Shown here one piece after another: positions 2,901 to 58,600 of a stretch of DNA of 60,000 bases. The translations under genes were made by a program, and so were the position numbers. The notes under the pieces are model-generated. The model was not told the origin of the DNA, made no database searches, and saw nothing but the letters and a program-made list of their open reading frames with translations. The stretch is from Malacoraja senta. Lineage: Eukaryota. The stretch lies in assembly GCA_038087875.1 (NCBI GenBank), contig CM075993.1, positions 8,124,001-8,184,000 of the forward strand. The letters are read 5' to 3'. Position 1 is the stretch's first letter, and each line of letters begins with the position of its first letter.

Positions 2901-5900
2901 CCTTGCTTGGCATCAACCCCCCAATGAAAAAGGAGATGGGGAACTGTGACCTTGAAATAGAAGCTCTGCTTTAAAAAAACAACAAACCCTTCACCCTCAA
3001 AAAATTAAGTAGTTCTAGATTTGCCTATTGACGCTCTCATATATCCGCTCAGAAATAGAACAAAACCCTTCTGTGGACACTGAGGCATTCTTCATGAGCA
3101 ACTCATTGTCTGGCCAGGTCTTGCATCCGAGTCAGAAAGTTGTGTGTTCAGCAATAACCAGGTCCCCTTTCGCTCCGATCTTTCATTAGCTCAGATCTCA
3201 TCCAGTACGGCTCTTCCAATGATAAGGTCATACGTGATAGAAGCAGAATTAGGCCATTTGGCCCATCGTGTCTACTCCGCCATTCCATCACGGCTGAACT
3301 ATCTCTCCCTCCTAACCCCATTCTCCTGCCTTCTCCCCATAACCTCTGACACCTGTACTAATCAAGAATCTATCTGTCTCTGCCTTAAAAATATCCATTG
3401 ACGGCCTCCACAGTGTTCGGTGGCAAAGAATTCCACAGATTCACTACCCTCTGACTAAAGAAATTCCTCCTTATTTCCTTCCCAAAGGAACATCCTTTAA
3501 TTCTGAGGCTTTGACCTCAGGACCCAGACTCTCCCACTAGTGGAAACATCCTCTCCACAGTCTGAAGAAGGGTTTCGGACCGAAACGTTGCCTATTTCCT
3601 TTGCTCCATAGATGCTGCTGTACCTGCTGAGTTTTCCAGCACTTTTGTCTACCTTTGATTTTCCAGCATCTGCAGTTCCTTCTTAAACTCTCCAAATCCA
3701 TTCGATCCAGGCCTTTCACTATTCGGTAGGGGTGGCACGGTGGCACAGCAGCAGGGTTGCTGCCTTACAGCGCTTGCAGCACCGGCGATCCTGACTACGG
3801 GTGCTGTCTGTACGGAGTTTGCACGTTCACCCCGTGACTGTGTGGTTTTTCTCCGAGATCTTCAGTTTCCTCCCACACTCCAAAGACGTACAGGTGTGTA
3901 GGTTAATTGGCTTGGTGTATGTGTAAATTGTCTCTAGTGTGTGTAGGATAGTGTTAATTTGTGTGGATCGCTGGTCGGCACGGACTCGTTGGGCTGAAGG
4001 GCCTGTTTCTGTGCTGTATCTTGAAACTAAAACTAAAAACTAAAACTATATTTGGTAAGTAAGTGATGTTCTTCTGTAGAGTCATCACTGCTGTTGGAGA
4101 GAGGAAGGTGGCAACTATTCACTGCATCAAACAGCAAGAGGTAAGAATCGGCTCATCTACTTATTTTCCCCTCGGGTCTGTTGCTTAAGGGAAGAAAATT
4201 GGCGAGGGCCGACGTTACTCCACAGCACCCGTTATTGGAACTTTTATGCTCAAGTGGAACTTTGGTTCCAATTTGCTCCGGTCTTTTCTTACCTGCAGTT
4301 TATTTCCCACCTCCCACCTCCCACCTCCACCTCTTTCAGTCTGAAGAAGGGTTCTGACCTGAACATCACCTATTCTGTTTCTCCAGAGATGCTGCCTGAC
4401 CCGCTGAGTTACTCCAGCACTTTGTGTCTATTTTTAATGGCGGCCATCAGAAGACTCCAATGACACTGGGTTTGTTCATCTGGAGTATCTGTGTCTCTCT
4501 ACCTCTGAGATAAGAGGGACAGGGATTCGCAAATCCATACCCATAAGCAAATAATCCAGGATGGTGTCTGGTGCAGAAGTGTAGGCTGCTGCAGTGTCGG
4601 AGGTGCCAGCATTGAAAAGCCAAGTCAGTGGATATTTTTAAGGCAGAGATAGATAGATTCTTGATTAATACAGGTGTCAGAGGTTAGGGTGTTAGGGGAG
4701 ATAGATCAGCCATGATTGAATGGCAGAGTAGACTTGATGGGCCGAATGGCCTAATTCTACTCCTATTCCTTATGACCTTCTGAAAGTCATAAACAATCTG
4801 CAGGAGGAACTCAGCGGGTCAGGCAGCATCTGTGGAAGGCAGTGGACAGTAGATGTTCTGCGTTGTGACCCTTCACCTGAACCGGACGTTAAACTTTGAC
4901 CTGGCCTGCCCACTAGGGGCCACAGAAGATCACACAACACTATTCAAATGAGGGAAAAACGTAAAAATGCTGGAGTAACTCAGCGGATCAGGCAGGAGTT
5001 TTGGATAATCCTTTGTTCTCCCTATTTAATCCCCATTGATCTCCAGAGATGCTGCCTTACGCACCGAGTTACTCCAGCATTTTGAGTATTTCCCTCATTC
5101 GAATAGTGTGTGCACAGTGAGCATTCAAGGTCAAAGTTTAACATCCGATTCAGATGGAGGGTCCCATCCAGGAATGGCAAGTGGCTATTTTCTTCCACAG
5201 ATGCTGCCTGACCCGCTGAGTCCTCCAGCACTGTGTGTCTTCCGTTTATCAACCACCATCTGCAGTTCCTTGTTTCCACGATTCAGACCTGCTGGCCCCA
5301 GTCACACACATCATGGGCCTCACAGCAGCACAGCGGTAGAGTTGCTGCCTCACAGCGCCAGAGACTCGGGTTCGATCCTGACTCCGGGTGCTGTCTGTAC
5401 CATGTTTGTACGTTCTCCCTGTGACCACGCCGATTTTCTCCGGCTGATCCAGTTTCCTCCCACATTCCAAAGACGTGCAGGTTTGTAGGTTAATTGGCAT
5501 CTGTAAATTGTCCCTTGTGCGTCGGATAGAACGAATGAACGGGCGATCGCTGTTCAGCACGGACTCGGTGGGCCGAAGGGCCTGTTTCCACGCTGTATCT
5601 CTAAAATAAACTAGACATTATCTTCACCAGGTGGGAGGTTGCTGGGTGCACGTTGGCCCCTGATTTGGCACAATTGTGACCTTACAACGGGAAATATTTC
5701 ACTCGTTGCGTAACTCCAGGGGTGCTCGGAAACGGTGAACAACTCTGCTGAAGCTGTTGAATGCCGATAAAACTTTCAACTTGTGCTCTGTCCTGCAGGG
5801 AAGGGTTATAGACATAGACATAGGAAATAGGTGCAGGAGGAGGCCATTCGGCCCTTCGAGCCGGCACCGCCATTCATTGTGATCATGGCTGATCATCCCC

Positions 5901-52589: not shown

Positions 52590-53230
52590 TCCCCATCCCC
52601 CAAGTACCTTGGAGTTTACCTGGACAGTAAACTGGACTGGTCCAGGAATGCTGAGGCACTGTATAAGAAGGGACAGAGCCATCTGCACTTTCTGAGGAGG
52701 CTCAACTCTTTCAACGTCTGCAGTAAGATGCTGCAGATGTTCTATCAATCGGTGGTGGCCAGTGCCATCTTCTTCGCTGCCATGTGCTGGGGCAGCAGAG
52801 CGAAGGCCATGGATGCCAACAGAATTAACAAGCTCATCGGGAAGGCTGGCTCTGTCCTGAAGGTGGAGTTGGATTCATTGGAGATGGTCTTGGAGGGGAG
52901 GATGCCCCACAAATTGTACAATACAGCTCACCTCCTCCATGACACTATGGTCAACCTGAGGAGCACCTTCAGCAACAGACTTGTTCCACCAAGATGCAGC
53001 ACAGAACGCTACAGGAGATCCCTTTTCCCTGTGGCTATCAAACTGTACAACTCCTCCCCCTTCTGTCCTGGGGTAGACTGACTCATCTTCCCCCCAATCT
53101 TTGCACATCCCCAATCCTGGACTTTCCACTCGTCACTTTAATTTCATGTTTCATGTATCTTGTTGTGATTTATGATTGTTGTCAGACCAATTTACCTTCT
53201 GGGATAAATAAAGTTCTATTGTATCATATC
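52590..53230 (+). mobile_element. Rex1/Babar LINE 3' fragment
   Basis: MLQMFYQSVVASAIFFAAMCWG...TERYRRSLFPVAIKLYN; related copies at 7565-8020 (-) and 56515-56850 (-). Confidence 0.85.
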
Positions 53231-53616: not shown

Positions 53617-55085
53617 GACAATAGGTGCAGGAGTAGGCCATTCGGCCCTTCGAGCCAGCACCGCCATTCAATGTGTTCATGGCTAATAATCCCCAATCAG
53701 TACCCCGTTCCTGCCTTCTCCCCATATCCCTTGACTCCGCTATCTTTAAGAGCCCTCTCTAGCTCACTCTTGAAAGTATGCAGAGAACCAGCCTCCACTG
53801 TCCTTTGAGCAGAGAATTCCACAGACTCACAACTCTGTAAAGAATCTATAACGAGGCATCGTTACTTTACTATCTTTATTCATACTGGATATGGGGAGTG
53901 GTTAGTAGGTATGAGGTCACTATGTTAAAGGCACATGCATATCTCATCTACATCTTTCCTCTTCGAAACGACAGGCAAATACATTGGTGACATGGCGACC
54001 ACGGCTCATGCGCTAGGATAGTTAAACAAAATCGCCATAGCGGTCAGGCGGTTTGACAAGACGTCCCGCCCGGGTTCGCGTCTCGCCATCCACCCTTCCT
54101 GCAGGAGGAAGAGGCACCGGCAGGGACAGACGAACCTGAAAGGGGGAAACGGGAGGAGACGGAGGAGACCGCGGCACCGAACCCGGAGGTGATGCGAGAT
54201 CAGGACCGGGAAGAGCGCGGGCAGGCGAGCGAGGACTAGTCGGAGCGGGGTGGAACAGAAGGGGCTGAGGAGGAGCAGAACGTTGCATGTCAGGAAGGAC
54301 GGGCAGAGCAACGCCCTGACGCGAAACAGGCAGTGGGGGAGCAAAGGGATCCGCGGCAGGAGGACGCGGCTCGTTGACGAGCCGAAGGTGCTGGCGGGAC
54401 CGTCGGTAAATGGCTCCAGCGTGGTCGACGAGATAGGACATGGGCGACCCCGCAGAGCCGACGACGGTAGCGAGCTTGGAGTGACCGGGAGCGGTCTGCA
54501 TACGGACAACTTGACCGGGGAAGAGGCGTGGCAGCGGGTGGCAGGACCTGTCATGGGAACGCTTTTGGACGTCGTGGGTTCGGATCCCACTTCTGACACC
54601 ATGTAAAGAATCTATAACGAGGCATCGTTACTTTACTATCTTTATTCATACTGGAGCATTACACATTGCACTAGCTGTACGTGGTCTGTCACAGGAACTA
54701 GAGAGCGATCTGTGGGTGGGGAGGTTGTAGATATACTTGTGATATGGGGAGTGGTTAGTAGGTATGAGGTCACTATGTTAAAGGCACATGCATATCTCAT
54801 CTACAAACTCTGTGTGCAAAAGTGTTTCCTCATCTCCGTTCTGAATGGCTTACCCCTTATTCTTAAACTGTGGCCCCTGGTTCTGGACTCCCCCAACATC
54901 GGGAACATGTTTCCTGCCTCTAACGTGTCCAAACCCATAATAATCTTATACGTTTCAATAAGATTCCCTCTCATCCTTATAAACTCCAGAGTGTACAAGC
55001 CCAGCCGCTCCATTCTCTCAGCATATGACAGTCCCGCCATTCCGGGAATTAACCTTGTAAACCTACGCTGCACTCCCTCAATAGC
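53617..55085 (-). mobile_element. CR1 LINE 3' end, split by the LTR element
   Basis: QRRFTRLIPGMAGLSYAERMERLGL... continues across the AACTC TSD into the CR1 3' UTR. Confidence 0.88.
53836..54805 (-). mobile_element. Miniature, internally deleted Ty3/Gypsy LTR retrotransposon nested in a CR1 LINE
   Basis: TG...CA LTRs at 54602-54805 and 53836-53952; AACTC 5-bp TSD; PBS TGGTGTCAGAAGTGGGAT (tRNA-Leu); PPT aagaggaaaga; integrase C-terminal peptide (PLPRLFPGQVVRMQ...SYLVDHAGAIYRRSRQHLR...TRAGRLVKPPDRYGDFV). Confidence 0.92.
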
Positions 55086-55344
55086 AAAGCTTCACTTTGC
55101 AGTCTATAATTAATACCCAGGGTAAAATATCATCCTTTGGTCCGTCCTAGTATAAATTATGTCCTGAGATCACAAGTGTTAATTAACACAGCCGCATTTC
55201 TGAGATGCATTCAAAAAACATTGGCTGTCATTCCACTTTTACATTACTAGAATCAGAACGGGCTGATTCTCTAATCATCTTATTTCGTTGGTATGAATTA
55301 GCATTAGTTTATCTTTGAGATAAACGTTGCTTAATTTTATCAAA

Positions 55345-55623: not shown

Positions 55624-58600
55624 GTGAGTGAGCTTTGTCGGCCGAGATTCCAGACGATGGCGAGTGAGCCGGGACTTCTGGCTTGGTGGAGATCTTCCTC
55701 CCCCAGCCACCACCCCACATCTTCCTTCCCAAATCAACAGTGAAGAGTTAATGGTGTATTGCTGACCTAGGGGTTTTTAGGGGAGAATAAGAGCATAGAG
55801 GGATTTGACGGGATGCTAGGGTAATATATGCCACGACGCACATGAGTGATGTGGAGCGCAGCAGCAGGTGGTTGGATTACAGTCAGTGGTAGTTACTGCC
55901 TGGTCCATCATGTGTACAGACTGCCCCATCATTGAAGAGATCCATGTGAATGCTACCTCAAAAAGACAGCCAATATCATCAAAGACCCCCTTCAACCCTC
56001 TCATCTCACTCCGACCATCAGGAAGCAATAGGAGCCCGAAAACTGAATAGCTTCTTCTCAGCAACCATTGGGCTCTTAAACAGCACACAACACTAACTTC
56101 AATTATGAACTGTCTTTGGTTGCATTTTGGGTTTTTTATATGCACCTGCACTGTGGTTATTGATATTTTAATTTATGAAATATTATTCATATGTATTGTG
56201 TTTATAGGTCTGTTATGCTGCTGCAAGTAAGAATATAATTTTTCTGTTGTCGGTACATATGACAGTTAACACTCTTGGATGAGATTAAGTTTAGGAAGAG
56301 GGAGGCCAAGCAGCTGAGCTTTGGAATAATTAGGTCACAGGGAATGTAAATGAATGAGGATTTTATCAGTGGATTTGAGGAGGTGGCAGCCAATGTGCTG
56401 TGATGGAAGTAGACGGTTTTCATGATTAAATGGATATACTGCCAGAAGTTACTCTAAAGAAAGCAAATGGTTCGTTCCAGTTTCAGATGCTGGTTATGGT
56501 AGGGAATGTAGTTACGATACGATAGAACTTTATTTATCCCAGGAGGAAATTGATCTGCCAACAGTCATAAAAACACAAAATATATGATTCATGAAATTAA
56601 AGTGACGAGTGGAAAGGATTGGGGATGTGCAAAGATTGTGGGGGGAGGGAGCGGAGTCAGTCTCAGTCTATCCCATGACAGAAGGGGGAGGAGTTGTGCA
56701 GTTTGATAGCCACAGGGAAGAAGGATCTCCTGTGGCGTTCTGTCCTGCATCTTGGTGGAACCAGTCTGTTGCTGACGGTACTCCTCAGGTTGACCAGTGT
56801 GTCATGGAGGGGGTGAGCTGTATTGTCCAGTATGTTCTGCAGTTTGAGGAGAAATTGCTGGAAAAAATATAATTAATCTTGTGCATCCACTATCATAAAT
56901 CTTAACATTAGCAATTAACTTTTAAAGAACAAAATCAAGATTTTCTTTTTCACCCAGAAGCTGGTTGTGAATTGGAATAATGTCCCTCAACTGAATGTTG
57001 AAGGGCACATAGGGAGATGAAATAAAAACAGAAAATTCTGGAAGCACCCAGCAGGTCAGGTAACAATTGTGGAGAGAGGAAGGCAGTCTTTGATATGAAA
57101 CATTAATTATGTTTCTACTGATGCTGCCTGATCTGCTAAATGTTTCTGTTATCTGCAGATCCTTGATTTTCACATGAGTGCATGATATGTGTGATAGGAA
57201 AATAACGAGAGGAGTAATTCACAGTGGTTTCCAAAGCTAAATTAAAATCTAAATCTTTAAAAAATTGCTCTCAGTATAATTAATTAATTAGACGAGAAAG
57301 TAGCAGGATCTTTACAGCAATCCTCTCGTCCTTTGGGGAAGGAAATCTGTAATCCTTCAACTATTTGTGACTCCTGACACTCAACTACTTGGATGAGTTT
57401 TAACTGTCCTCAAATTGCCTAACAAGCCAAGGTTAAATGGAATTGGAGATAGGAAATAAACACTAGCCTTGCCAGTGGCACCCACATCTTTACAGGGAAT
57501 AAGTGACATTGTCAACATTTCTATTGTGTACTTATTGGTGGCTTTTAACCTGCGTTGCATTTACGATGAGATTCCTGATTGATTGAAATTGAAAGATACA
57601 ACATGGAAAGCGGTCGACACCGAGTCCACGCCGACCATCCATCACCCATTCACATTAGTTCCATGTTTTCCCACTTTCTCATCCATTCACCACACACTCG
57701 GGGTAATTTACAGTGCCAATTATCCTATTTTAATTGTCTTTGGTCTTTGGGATCTGGGAAGAAACCGGAGCGCCCAGAGGAAATTCATGCGATCACAGGG
57801 AGAACATGCACATTTCCTGTAACCAGCACCCGAGGTCAGAATGGAACCCGAGTCTTTGGCACAAGTTCACAGGTTGTAGGAATAGAATTAGGCCATTCGG
57901 CCCATCGAGTCCACTCCGCCATTCAATCATGGCTGATCTCTGCCTCCTAATCACATTTTCCTGCCTTCTCCCATAACCCTTGACACCCGTTCTAATCAAG
58001 AATTTGTCTATCTCTGCCTTAAAAATATCCACTGACTTGGCCTCCACAGCTCTATGTGGCAATGATTTCCACAGATTAACTACCCTCTTACTAAAGAAAT
58101 TCCTCCTCACCTCCCTTCTAAAATTCTGAGGCTATGACCTCTGGTCCTAGACTATTTATGCCTTTCATTCTGTAAGTTTTAATGAGGTCCCCCCCCCCCC
58201 CCCCCAATCAACCTTCTAAACTCCAGCGAGTCAAGGCTAAGTGCTGTCAAAAGCTCATCATATGCTAACCCACTCATTCCTGGAATCATTTTTGTAAACC
58301 TCCTCTGGATCCTCTCCAGAGCCAGCATATCCTTCCTCGGATACGGGGCCCAAATTTGCTCACAGTACTTCAAATGTGGCCTGACCAGCACCTTGTAGAG
58401 CCTCAGCATTACATCTCTGTTTTTGTATTCCAGTCCTCTTGATATAAATGCTAGCATTGAATTTGCCTTTCTTACTACCGATTCGACTTGCAAATTAACT
58501 TTTTGGGAGTCCTGCACAAGCACTCCCAAGTCCCTTTGCACCTTCGATTTCTGGATTCTCACCCCATATGGAAAATAAATGGCGCTGTGAGGCATCAACT

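Follow-up and report, generated by a model that had tools for sequence, protein, structure and literature searches.

Copies of the tRNA-Leu primer, with errors and stops at probable modified bases, mark deletion junctions of a skate Gypsy retrotransposon

A deleted Gypsy copy that opens with its own primer

Positions 53831 to 54810 of the stretch of skate DNA analyzed here (60,000 nt, referred to as the window) hold a two-LTR Gypsy remnant of 970 bp on the minus strand, which we regard with considerable confidence as a deleted copy that opens with a piece of mature tRNA-Leu. The reverse transcriptase likely passed and misread a base of its own primer, presumably m1A58, and the plus strand likely joined an unfinished minus strand through a 4-nt microhomology before integration.

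A single 5-bp target-site duplication (TSD), AACTC, surrounds the whole unit and was read directly from the sequence at 54806..54810 on the side of the 5' LTR and at 53831..53835 on that of the 3' LTR. The 5' LTR (54602..54805, minus strand), with 204 nt and TG...CA termini, is 99.5 to 100% identical to the LTRs of the closest ordinary copies. It is followed on the same strand by the 8 nt that form the ordinary primer binding site (PBS) of the family (54594..54601; tRNA positions 76 to 69, CCA included; the match of ordinary copies runs to element nt 211 to 212) and by a copy of tRNA positions 68 to 59 (54584..54593), not found in ordinary copies, which ends at the strong stop seen in 34 of 93 insertions (see below). 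Comparison with the host tRNA-Leu genes then gives C for T opposite tRNA position 58 (54583, minus strand; A58>G in the tRNA sense, a putative misreading of m1A58) and a read-through copy of positions 57 to 52 (54577..54582, minus strand). The next four nucleotides, CACG (54573..54576, minus strand), are common to tRNA positions 51 to 48 and to the landing site in the integrase tail, as judged against ordinary copies. This tail (54022..54576, minus strand) retains the last 184 codons and the stop of the single gag-pol frame, 3' of the rve match (aa 1061 to 1138 of 1,405), and gave no Pfam match of its own; beyond the tRNA segment, the sequence is colinear with that of ordinary copies, starting at nt 3919 of 4746 (98 to 99% identity to the closest). 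A polypurine tract of 12 purines (53953..53964, minus strand, read from the sequence) adjoins the 3' LTR (53836..53952, minus strand), which has 117 nt, with LTR nt 1 to 65 joined to nt 151 to 204, and apart from this 87-nt internal deletion equals the 5' LTR. The 87 nt missing from the 3' LTR may reflect a deletion after insertion or LTRs derived from different molecules.

The sequence-only reading of 54573-54601 as a 29-nt copy of a tRNA-Leu 3' end, CCA included, was correct: over the 29 nt, the only difference from the host tRNA-Leu genes (L101, CAA type; L106 and L107, CAG) is at position 58, where the plus strand has G at 54583. The window contains the 18-nt tRNA core a single time; none of 100 shuffled versions had a match (mean, 0.00). 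Two details needed revision. An 18-nt PBS with 11 extra nucleotides had been assumed, but the ordinary PBS of this family is 7 to 8 nt, so that 21 nt are extra in the element. The tRNA copy had also been described as joined without a spacer, but 54573-54576 is common to the tRNA copy and to the landing site in L246 and L257; with these last 4 nt shared, the length of the copy is 25 to 29 nt. The core of the proposal is retained here, namely, that position 58 was read through and misread and that an aberrant plus-strand join followed, with loss of gag, protease, reverse transcriptase, RNase H, and the integrase core, leaving the 184-aa tail.

It is hardly credible that the tRNA piece is a separate insertion next to the LTR (a tRNA retrocopy made by a LINE) or an assembly chimera. 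Three contig-only public runs gave no piece across the junction (53700-54950), a search in which other repeat copies swamp the matches, and to this extent the insertion is without independent confirmation. Nevertheless, the CCA with which the copy begins always directly abuts the LTR, at hundreds of sites and across many LTR families, and instead of a separate TSD around the tRNA piece there is one around the whole unit (as in 73 of 80 two-LTR copies, below). ARAGORN found no tRNA gene in the 60,000-nt window.

The element lies in an older repeat (54801-55091 on the minus strand, and 53622-53835), whose frame presumably corresponds to the C terminus of a CR1/L2-type LINE. Farther out, 52909-53228 and 56513-56835 are two opposite copies of one repeat, with arms 89 to 97% complementary, and are likely ordinary interspersed repeats.

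The parent family has a short primer binding site

Ordinary copies, in which the LTR end is followed by 7 to 8 nt of tRNA complement, gave 369 matches by pattern search, and in 29 of the first 30 of these loci the LTR was ≥94% identical to that of the window. All 20 fetched ordinary copies have one leader with a 7- to 8-nt tRNA match, and 15 of them span 4.67 to 4.75 kb with two LTRs. Parent elements that already carried the 29-nt match had been named as a possible source of the extension; none appeared among these 20. In this family, even an 18-nt tRNA match is abnormal.

The hallmarks of Ty3/Gypsy elements (two TG...CA LTRs, PBS, polypurine tract, and TSD) are all present. A natural full-length copy has a single 1,405-aa frame with the Gypsy domain order protease, reverse transcriptase, RNase H, integrase. 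The Pfam matches are a protease (aa 338-386, weak and below cut-off), RVT_1 (aa 548-676), RNase H (aa 740-870), H2C2 (aa 979-1029), and rve (aa 1061-1138), with no match to env or BEL families on this copy. Its protein relatives are named K02A2.6-like or Gypsy integrase-like, the best being from the little skate (76%), which would point to a cartilaginous-fish host. Judged by features alone (ca. 4.7 kb, one ORF, LTRs of ca. 200 nt, a Leu primer, and a 5-bp TSD), the family would be Mag-like. A Culex study tabulates the Mag lineage with short LTRs, Leu or Ser primers, mostly 5-bp TSDs, lengths of 4.5 to 5.3 kb, and the order PR-RT-RH-IN (PMC3286476); the parent family resembles it in size, single ORF, LTR length, tRNA-Leu primer, TSD, and domain order.

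Independent read-through copies are often altered at position 58

A search with the family LTR end plus 16 nt of tRNA complement gave 120 matches. Of these, 99 were analyzed, namely the window and 98 fetched loci, and removal of six same-flank duplicates left 93 distinct insertions. Counts were taken from pattern searches because the first DNA search favored read-through copies. The 120 long matches against 369 ordinary ones suggest a proportion of roughly a quarter, with the proviso that the two patterns differ and that some ordinary-type matches lie inside aberrant copies.

Among the 93 insertions, the tRNA match ended at nt 18 in 34, at nt 16 to 17 in five, at nt 20 to 23 in nine, and at nt 24 to 49 in 45, with a second peak at nt 35 (n = 11). 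The nine copies with 20- to 23-nt matches do not enter the count of mismatches, as these bases can come from the landing site. Position 58 was changed in 20 of the 45 read-through copies (24 to 49 nt; element-strand letters C, 12; A, 7; G, 1), versus 5 of 563 control cells at nt 17 to 35 (Fisher P = 1e-20), and an adjacent CpG was changed in 0 of 45. The control excludes nt 9 to 16, fixed by the search pattern. A one-mismatch search gave 470 matches, of which the exact ones were itemized, and the per-position control was taken from the fetched copies instead. The copies therefore carry a signature of the m1A58 type, with arrest one base before position 58 (34 of 93 ending at nt 18) and mixed mismatches at the site itself (20/45 versus 5/563). 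With the correct base present in 25 of the 45 read-through copies, one copy taken alone is weak evidence, and the claim that the element is a genomic record of a tRNA modification, the identity of which is presumed, becomes far stronger with these population data.

LTR pairs differ at 1.24 positions on average in 72 aberrant copies and at 1.06 in 16 ordinary ones (P = 0.97), that is, at ca. 1.2 of 204 nt, and with a divergence of ca. 0.6% later mutation cannot yield 44% changed at a single site. The same comparison left an intermolecular origin of the aberrant copies, which we also considered, unsupported.

These data bear on the idea that the long tRNA match was inherited from a parent or from a TRIM-like subfamily and that the mismatch is an ordinary later mutation, which we consider largely refuted and very improbable. 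A few junctions do recur, with three copies at nt 2651 and eight copies of a sister family at one junction. However, recurrent first junctions are accompanied by different second junctions or LTR subtypes, the sister-family junction coincides with an 8-nt microhomology that the 18 ordinary copies of that family also contain, the extension is absent from 20 of 20 ordinary copies, the junction of the element is unique among the 93, and the divergence of LTR pairs is far under the 44% seen at one site. The junctions that recur coincide with hot spots of microhomology. L157 and L165 agree in site and length but differ at five LTR-end positions. For the eight sister-family copies, secondary spread of the read-through form was tried and rejected in favor of such a hot spot; they might still descend from a form that spread, although the microhomology explains them.

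The element shares with TRIMs the small two-LTR unit with PBS and polypurine tract (970 bp), but its interior keeps 184 open codons of the integrase tail, and no amplified family accompanies it. A count of mini-copies with the same junction gave none besides the element itself among 93 distinct insertions (of 120 matches). A route to TRIM-like families, as once suggested for it, finds no support here: junction 54573-54576 is absent from the other sampled copies, and no deleted form was seen spreading. According to PMC10886601, TRIMs, including Helenus, are likewise small, with two LTRs, a PBS, a polypurine tract, and no complete coding capacity, but they form multicopy families moved in trans, whereas the element is unique and has a coding remnant. 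Helenus has its tRNA-like sequence within the LTR, where it is attributed to a SINE insertion (PMC10886601), while the tRNA piece here is a primer copy.

The template is a mature tRNA

Searching the genome with the 5' half of the tRNA gave 10 matches: eight genes, three of CAA type with an intron and five CAG, together with a 5' fragment and a whole copy linked to an LTR. ARAGORN assigned a wrong anticodon to the intron-containing CAA genes, and the anticodon was therefore read by eye. The eight intact tRNA-Leu genes have A58 in 8/8 and encode CCA in none, in a census that may miss collapsed arrays; a gene with G58, which would have supplied the mismatch directly, was not found in this possibly incomplete assembly. 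A search for 3' ends without the following C gave 10 matches, and those with G or T at position 58 had no 5' half and ended in the LTR-type TG. A lone 5' half of tRNA-Leu(CAA), ending at the anticodon loop, lies at L102:1501-1535 (minus strand).

Longer copies extend these observations beyond the family. TACA plus the 18-mer had 918 matches in the genome, and seven of the first 30, from several families, reach nt 29 or beyond. Copies exact to nt 29 apart from position 58 number 368 genome-wide, and among the first 100 of them, counted by eye, the base opposite position 58 was T in 62, A in 24, C in 10, and G in four. The error spectrum at this site differs between the family (C, 12; A, 7) and other families (C, 6; A, 23; P = 0.005), hinting at enzyme-specific signatures.

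A search reaching U38 gave 60 matches, all of which were examined; three are genes, and 55 of the other 57 have CCA followed by the LTR-type TG (a loose test). Duplicates remain among these 57, with at least two identical pairs. The variable-loop C common to all three CAA genes, which is nt 36 and lies directly past the nt-35 stop, is changed in 44 of the 57 (T, 34; C, 13; G, 6; A, 3; deleted, 1), on both gene alleles. Fifty of the 57 end at U38 or one base beyond it (a chance match explains the extra base), and one goes 3 nt further. Only six cross G37; it is changed in four of them, and one of the six is changed at positions 25 to 26. The intron is absent in all six, and this, together with the absence of CCA from the genes, shows the template to be mature tRNA.

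The errors and stops in the tRNA copies likely mark chemically modified bases, and the identity of each modification is suggested by its position and by the pattern of stop plus mismatch. In two tRNA-sequencing studies, modified bases appear as arrest one base before the site and mixed mismatches at it, and 58, e2/47d, 37, and 26 are known vertebrate modification sites (PMC4787781 and PMC11417395). The copies are alike in their arrest and mismatch pattern at 58, e2, and 37, but here a retrotransposon enzyme left the signature in vivo and the genome has preserved it, and the e2 signal is on Leu-CAA (PMC4787781 and PMC11417395). In the portion available, the zebrafish data report m3C-e2 for Leu-CAG and Ser and not for Leu-CAA (PMC11417395).

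Could the variable letters instead come from unassembled tRNA-Leu gene variants? We think this quite unlikely. The assembly may lack tRNA arrays, only three CAA-type genes were found, and the T majority at e2 (34/57) could be explained by one missing gene variant. Against this, each of the four letters is seen both at 58 and at e2, in the latter case on both gene alleles; the same sites are stops (nt 18 and nt 35), and G37 has both a stop and errors; A58 is found in 8/8 intact genes; and the variable-arm matches include only three genes among 60. Misreading of modified bases is thus the reading that we keep.

One exceptional copy is of full length. In L110/L209 (L350 is the same place), a whole spliced tRNA-Leu(CAA) of 87 nt with CCA (L209:6675-6761) has the gene letters at all four sites. 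It belongs to a different Gypsy family, with an LTR on one side and, on the other, integrase sequence and then a second LTR. This copy likely derives from an unmodified tRNA molecule.

Formation of the junctions

The first junction could be mapped to the element in 88 of the 93 insertions (67 sense and 21 inverted; 5/93 unmapped), with landing sites from nt 149 to nt 4552, roughly even along the element and without crowding near the 3' end. Among direct joins, 32 of 62 have a microhomology of ≥3 nt, compared with 5% by simulation, and 26 of the 88 mapped joins have a gap or extra bases instead of an overlap. By segments, 54 copies are single, 15 have several, and 24 include an inverted piece (39/93 several or inverted). 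Eighteen copies first run inverted and then return to the sense orientation; in 16 of these, the start of the inverted piece lies upstream of the point at which the sense part resumes, and the other two run counter to the idea of priming on RNA not yet degraded. The 5-bp TSD is exact in 73 of 80 two-LTR copies.

We propose the following course. Ordinary copies, with their 7- to 8-nt PBS, do not inherit primer sequence; in the ordinary cycle, plus-strand transfer would use LTR pairing as in Ty1/Ty3, and the tRNA-bearing first plus-strand strong-stop DNA would be a dead-end by-product. As the copies show, copying of the attached primer by the plus strand stops mostly at nt 18, 35, and 49, just before positions 58, e2, and 37, with frequent misreading upon passage; from this pattern, the bases would be m1A58, m3C-e2, and m1G37. 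A stalled minus strand or broken RNA would then make proper transfer impossible, and the end of the tRNA copy would pair with a few bases elsewhere in the element, as the microhomologies suggest. In about a quarter of cases, an inverted piece would be copied first, likely primed on RNA not yet degraded. The product has both LTR ends intact and is integrated with a 5-bp TSD, presumably through integrase, and each product looks like a one-off event rather than the founder of a family. Frequent stalling might predict crowding of landing sites at the 3' end, a counterpoint to which the even spread gives some weight.

A variant of this scheme leaves the tRNA copy and its errors to the reverse transcriptase but has the join made later by the host, through microhomology-mediated end-joining of the strong-stop duplex and broken cDNA. 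We hold it possible, if rather unlikely. Junctions of short overlap with inserted bases resemble repair junctions, as at L1 5' ends, and the 1- to 5-nt overlaps, the inserted bases in 26/88 joins, the multisegment and inverted products, and the even landing sites all fit such a process; the extra bases and gaps, the unmapped joins, and the multisegment or inverted copies could indeed point to host repair rather than to reverse transcriptase. On the other hand, inverted pieces start upstream of the resumption point in 16/18, as priming on intact RNA predicts, the mapped pieces derive from the element itself in 88/93, the primer region also occurs in folded-back form (L178 and L111), and LTR pairs are no more divergent than ordinary ones (mean of 1.24 versus 1.06). 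The structure of the junctions would suit both routes, of which joining during reverse transcription is the one that we somewhat prefer.

Several copies have unusual structures. In L149 and L170, the element is inverted after the tRNA copy and runs back to the start of a 5' LTR, so that its two LTRs point in opposite directions. In L178, L150, L262, L344, and L345, primer-region sequence follows the tRNA copy once more, either as a second copy or folded back. In L127, L171, L200, and L208, the end of the tRNA copy landed within the LTR (nt 149 to 186), so that the LTR end is repeated and a second PBS is present. In L166, L203, L176, and L131, the tRNA copy is followed by A-rich tracts or by several hundred non-family bases, a possible capture of other RNAs.

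Relation to known systems

Strand-transfer deletions at the PBS were reportedly described by Pulsinelli and Temin in 1991. The closest parallel is a set of 44 defective HIV-1 proviruses (one own sequence and 43 from GenBank) with tRNA(Lys3) inserts, attributed to delayed second-strand transfer (Hardy et al. 2025, PMC12657518); the inserts measure 7 to 54 nt there, and position 58 is changed in 5/44. In both systems, an extra tRNA copy following LTR and PBS marks the deletion junction, with some changes at position 58 (PMC12657518), and the features of the HIV type of delayed transfer are found here: a copy running from the LTR end past the PBS to the deletion junction, a mature template, and a parent without the extension. 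The proviruses are somatic and rare, whereas the skate events are fixed in the germline and number hundreds, amounting in the family to ca. a quarter of the copies that bear a PBS; changes at position 58 affect 38 to 44% here versus 5/44, sites e2 and 37 are involved as well, and the parent PBS has 7 to 8 nt (PMC12657518). The mechanism is already known from rare HIV proviruses, while its scale, germline fixation, and multisite map were not found in the literature searched.

The role of m1A58 as the strong-stop site is treated in PMC8599865. In Ty1/Ty3, the primer is copied into the first plus-strand strong-stop DNA but not inherited, the stop after 12 nt being a dead end (PMC5371799). Such a noninherited primer copy agrees with the short and stable PBS seen in ordinary skate copies, but the tRNA-bearing strand here runs to 18 to 87 nt instead of stopping at 12 and is found integrated (PMC5371799 and PMC7472051). 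Ty1 and Ty3 strictly inherit their PBS, and mouse ERVs are described as lacking modification-linked PBS changes (PMC7472051). In mouse ETn/MusD elements, a fixed C opposite m1A58 by the PBS has been proposed to stem from misincorporation (bioRxiv 10.1101/2025.05.12.650695). The likeness lies in a genomic base beside the PBS attributed to m1A58 misincorporation; the difference is that ETn/MusD show a single inherited base in working elements and the skate copies a three-letter spectrum over independent junctions (bioRxiv 10.1101/2025.05.12.650695). Genome-scale primer read-through is not described in the available portions of PMC10886601, PMC7197481, PMC3286476, and PMC9278108, and a literature search, with subscription journals, Repbase, and Dfam largely outside its scope, gave no report of such read-through or of a multisite modification record in LTR retrotransposons.

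Implications

If the errors and stops mark modified bases, as is likely, the genome would preserve a legible trace of tRNA chemistry in the germline. On balance, we favor the broader view that animal genomes with short-PBS Gypsy elements contain an in vivo, datable, germline “tRNA-seq library,” in which the supposedly dead-end strong-stop DNA is rescued and integrated in ca. a quarter of insertions and which records m1A58, m1G37, occasionally m2,2G26, and, for the variable loop of tRNA-Leu(CAA), an m3C hitherto unreported, with enzyme-specific error spectra, together with spliced, CCA-ended tRNA retrocopies that are called as genes. A rare laboratory or HIV error would thereby become a countable germline process (ca. 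120 versus 369 family copies, a rough figure from different patterns), offering a handle on the failure rate of LTR-element reverse transcription and on plus-strand transfer with an 8-nt PBS. Sites of tRNA modification could be read from an assembly alone, including in species without RNA samples, and past modification could be dated with LTR divergence as the clock. A direct prediction is a modified C at e2 of tRNA-Leu(CAA).

Read-through may depend on PBS length. A family with an 18-nt PBS showed no read-through in 12 sampled copies (L041 to L044, L050, L055, L056, L060, L062, L063, L065, and L067), several of which have deletions at the PBS end. For annotation, an 18-nt “perfect PBS” can mark a defective copy, so that PBS-based LTR finders would choose broken copies, and the whole-tRNA read-through in L110 is called a tRNA gene by ARAGORN.
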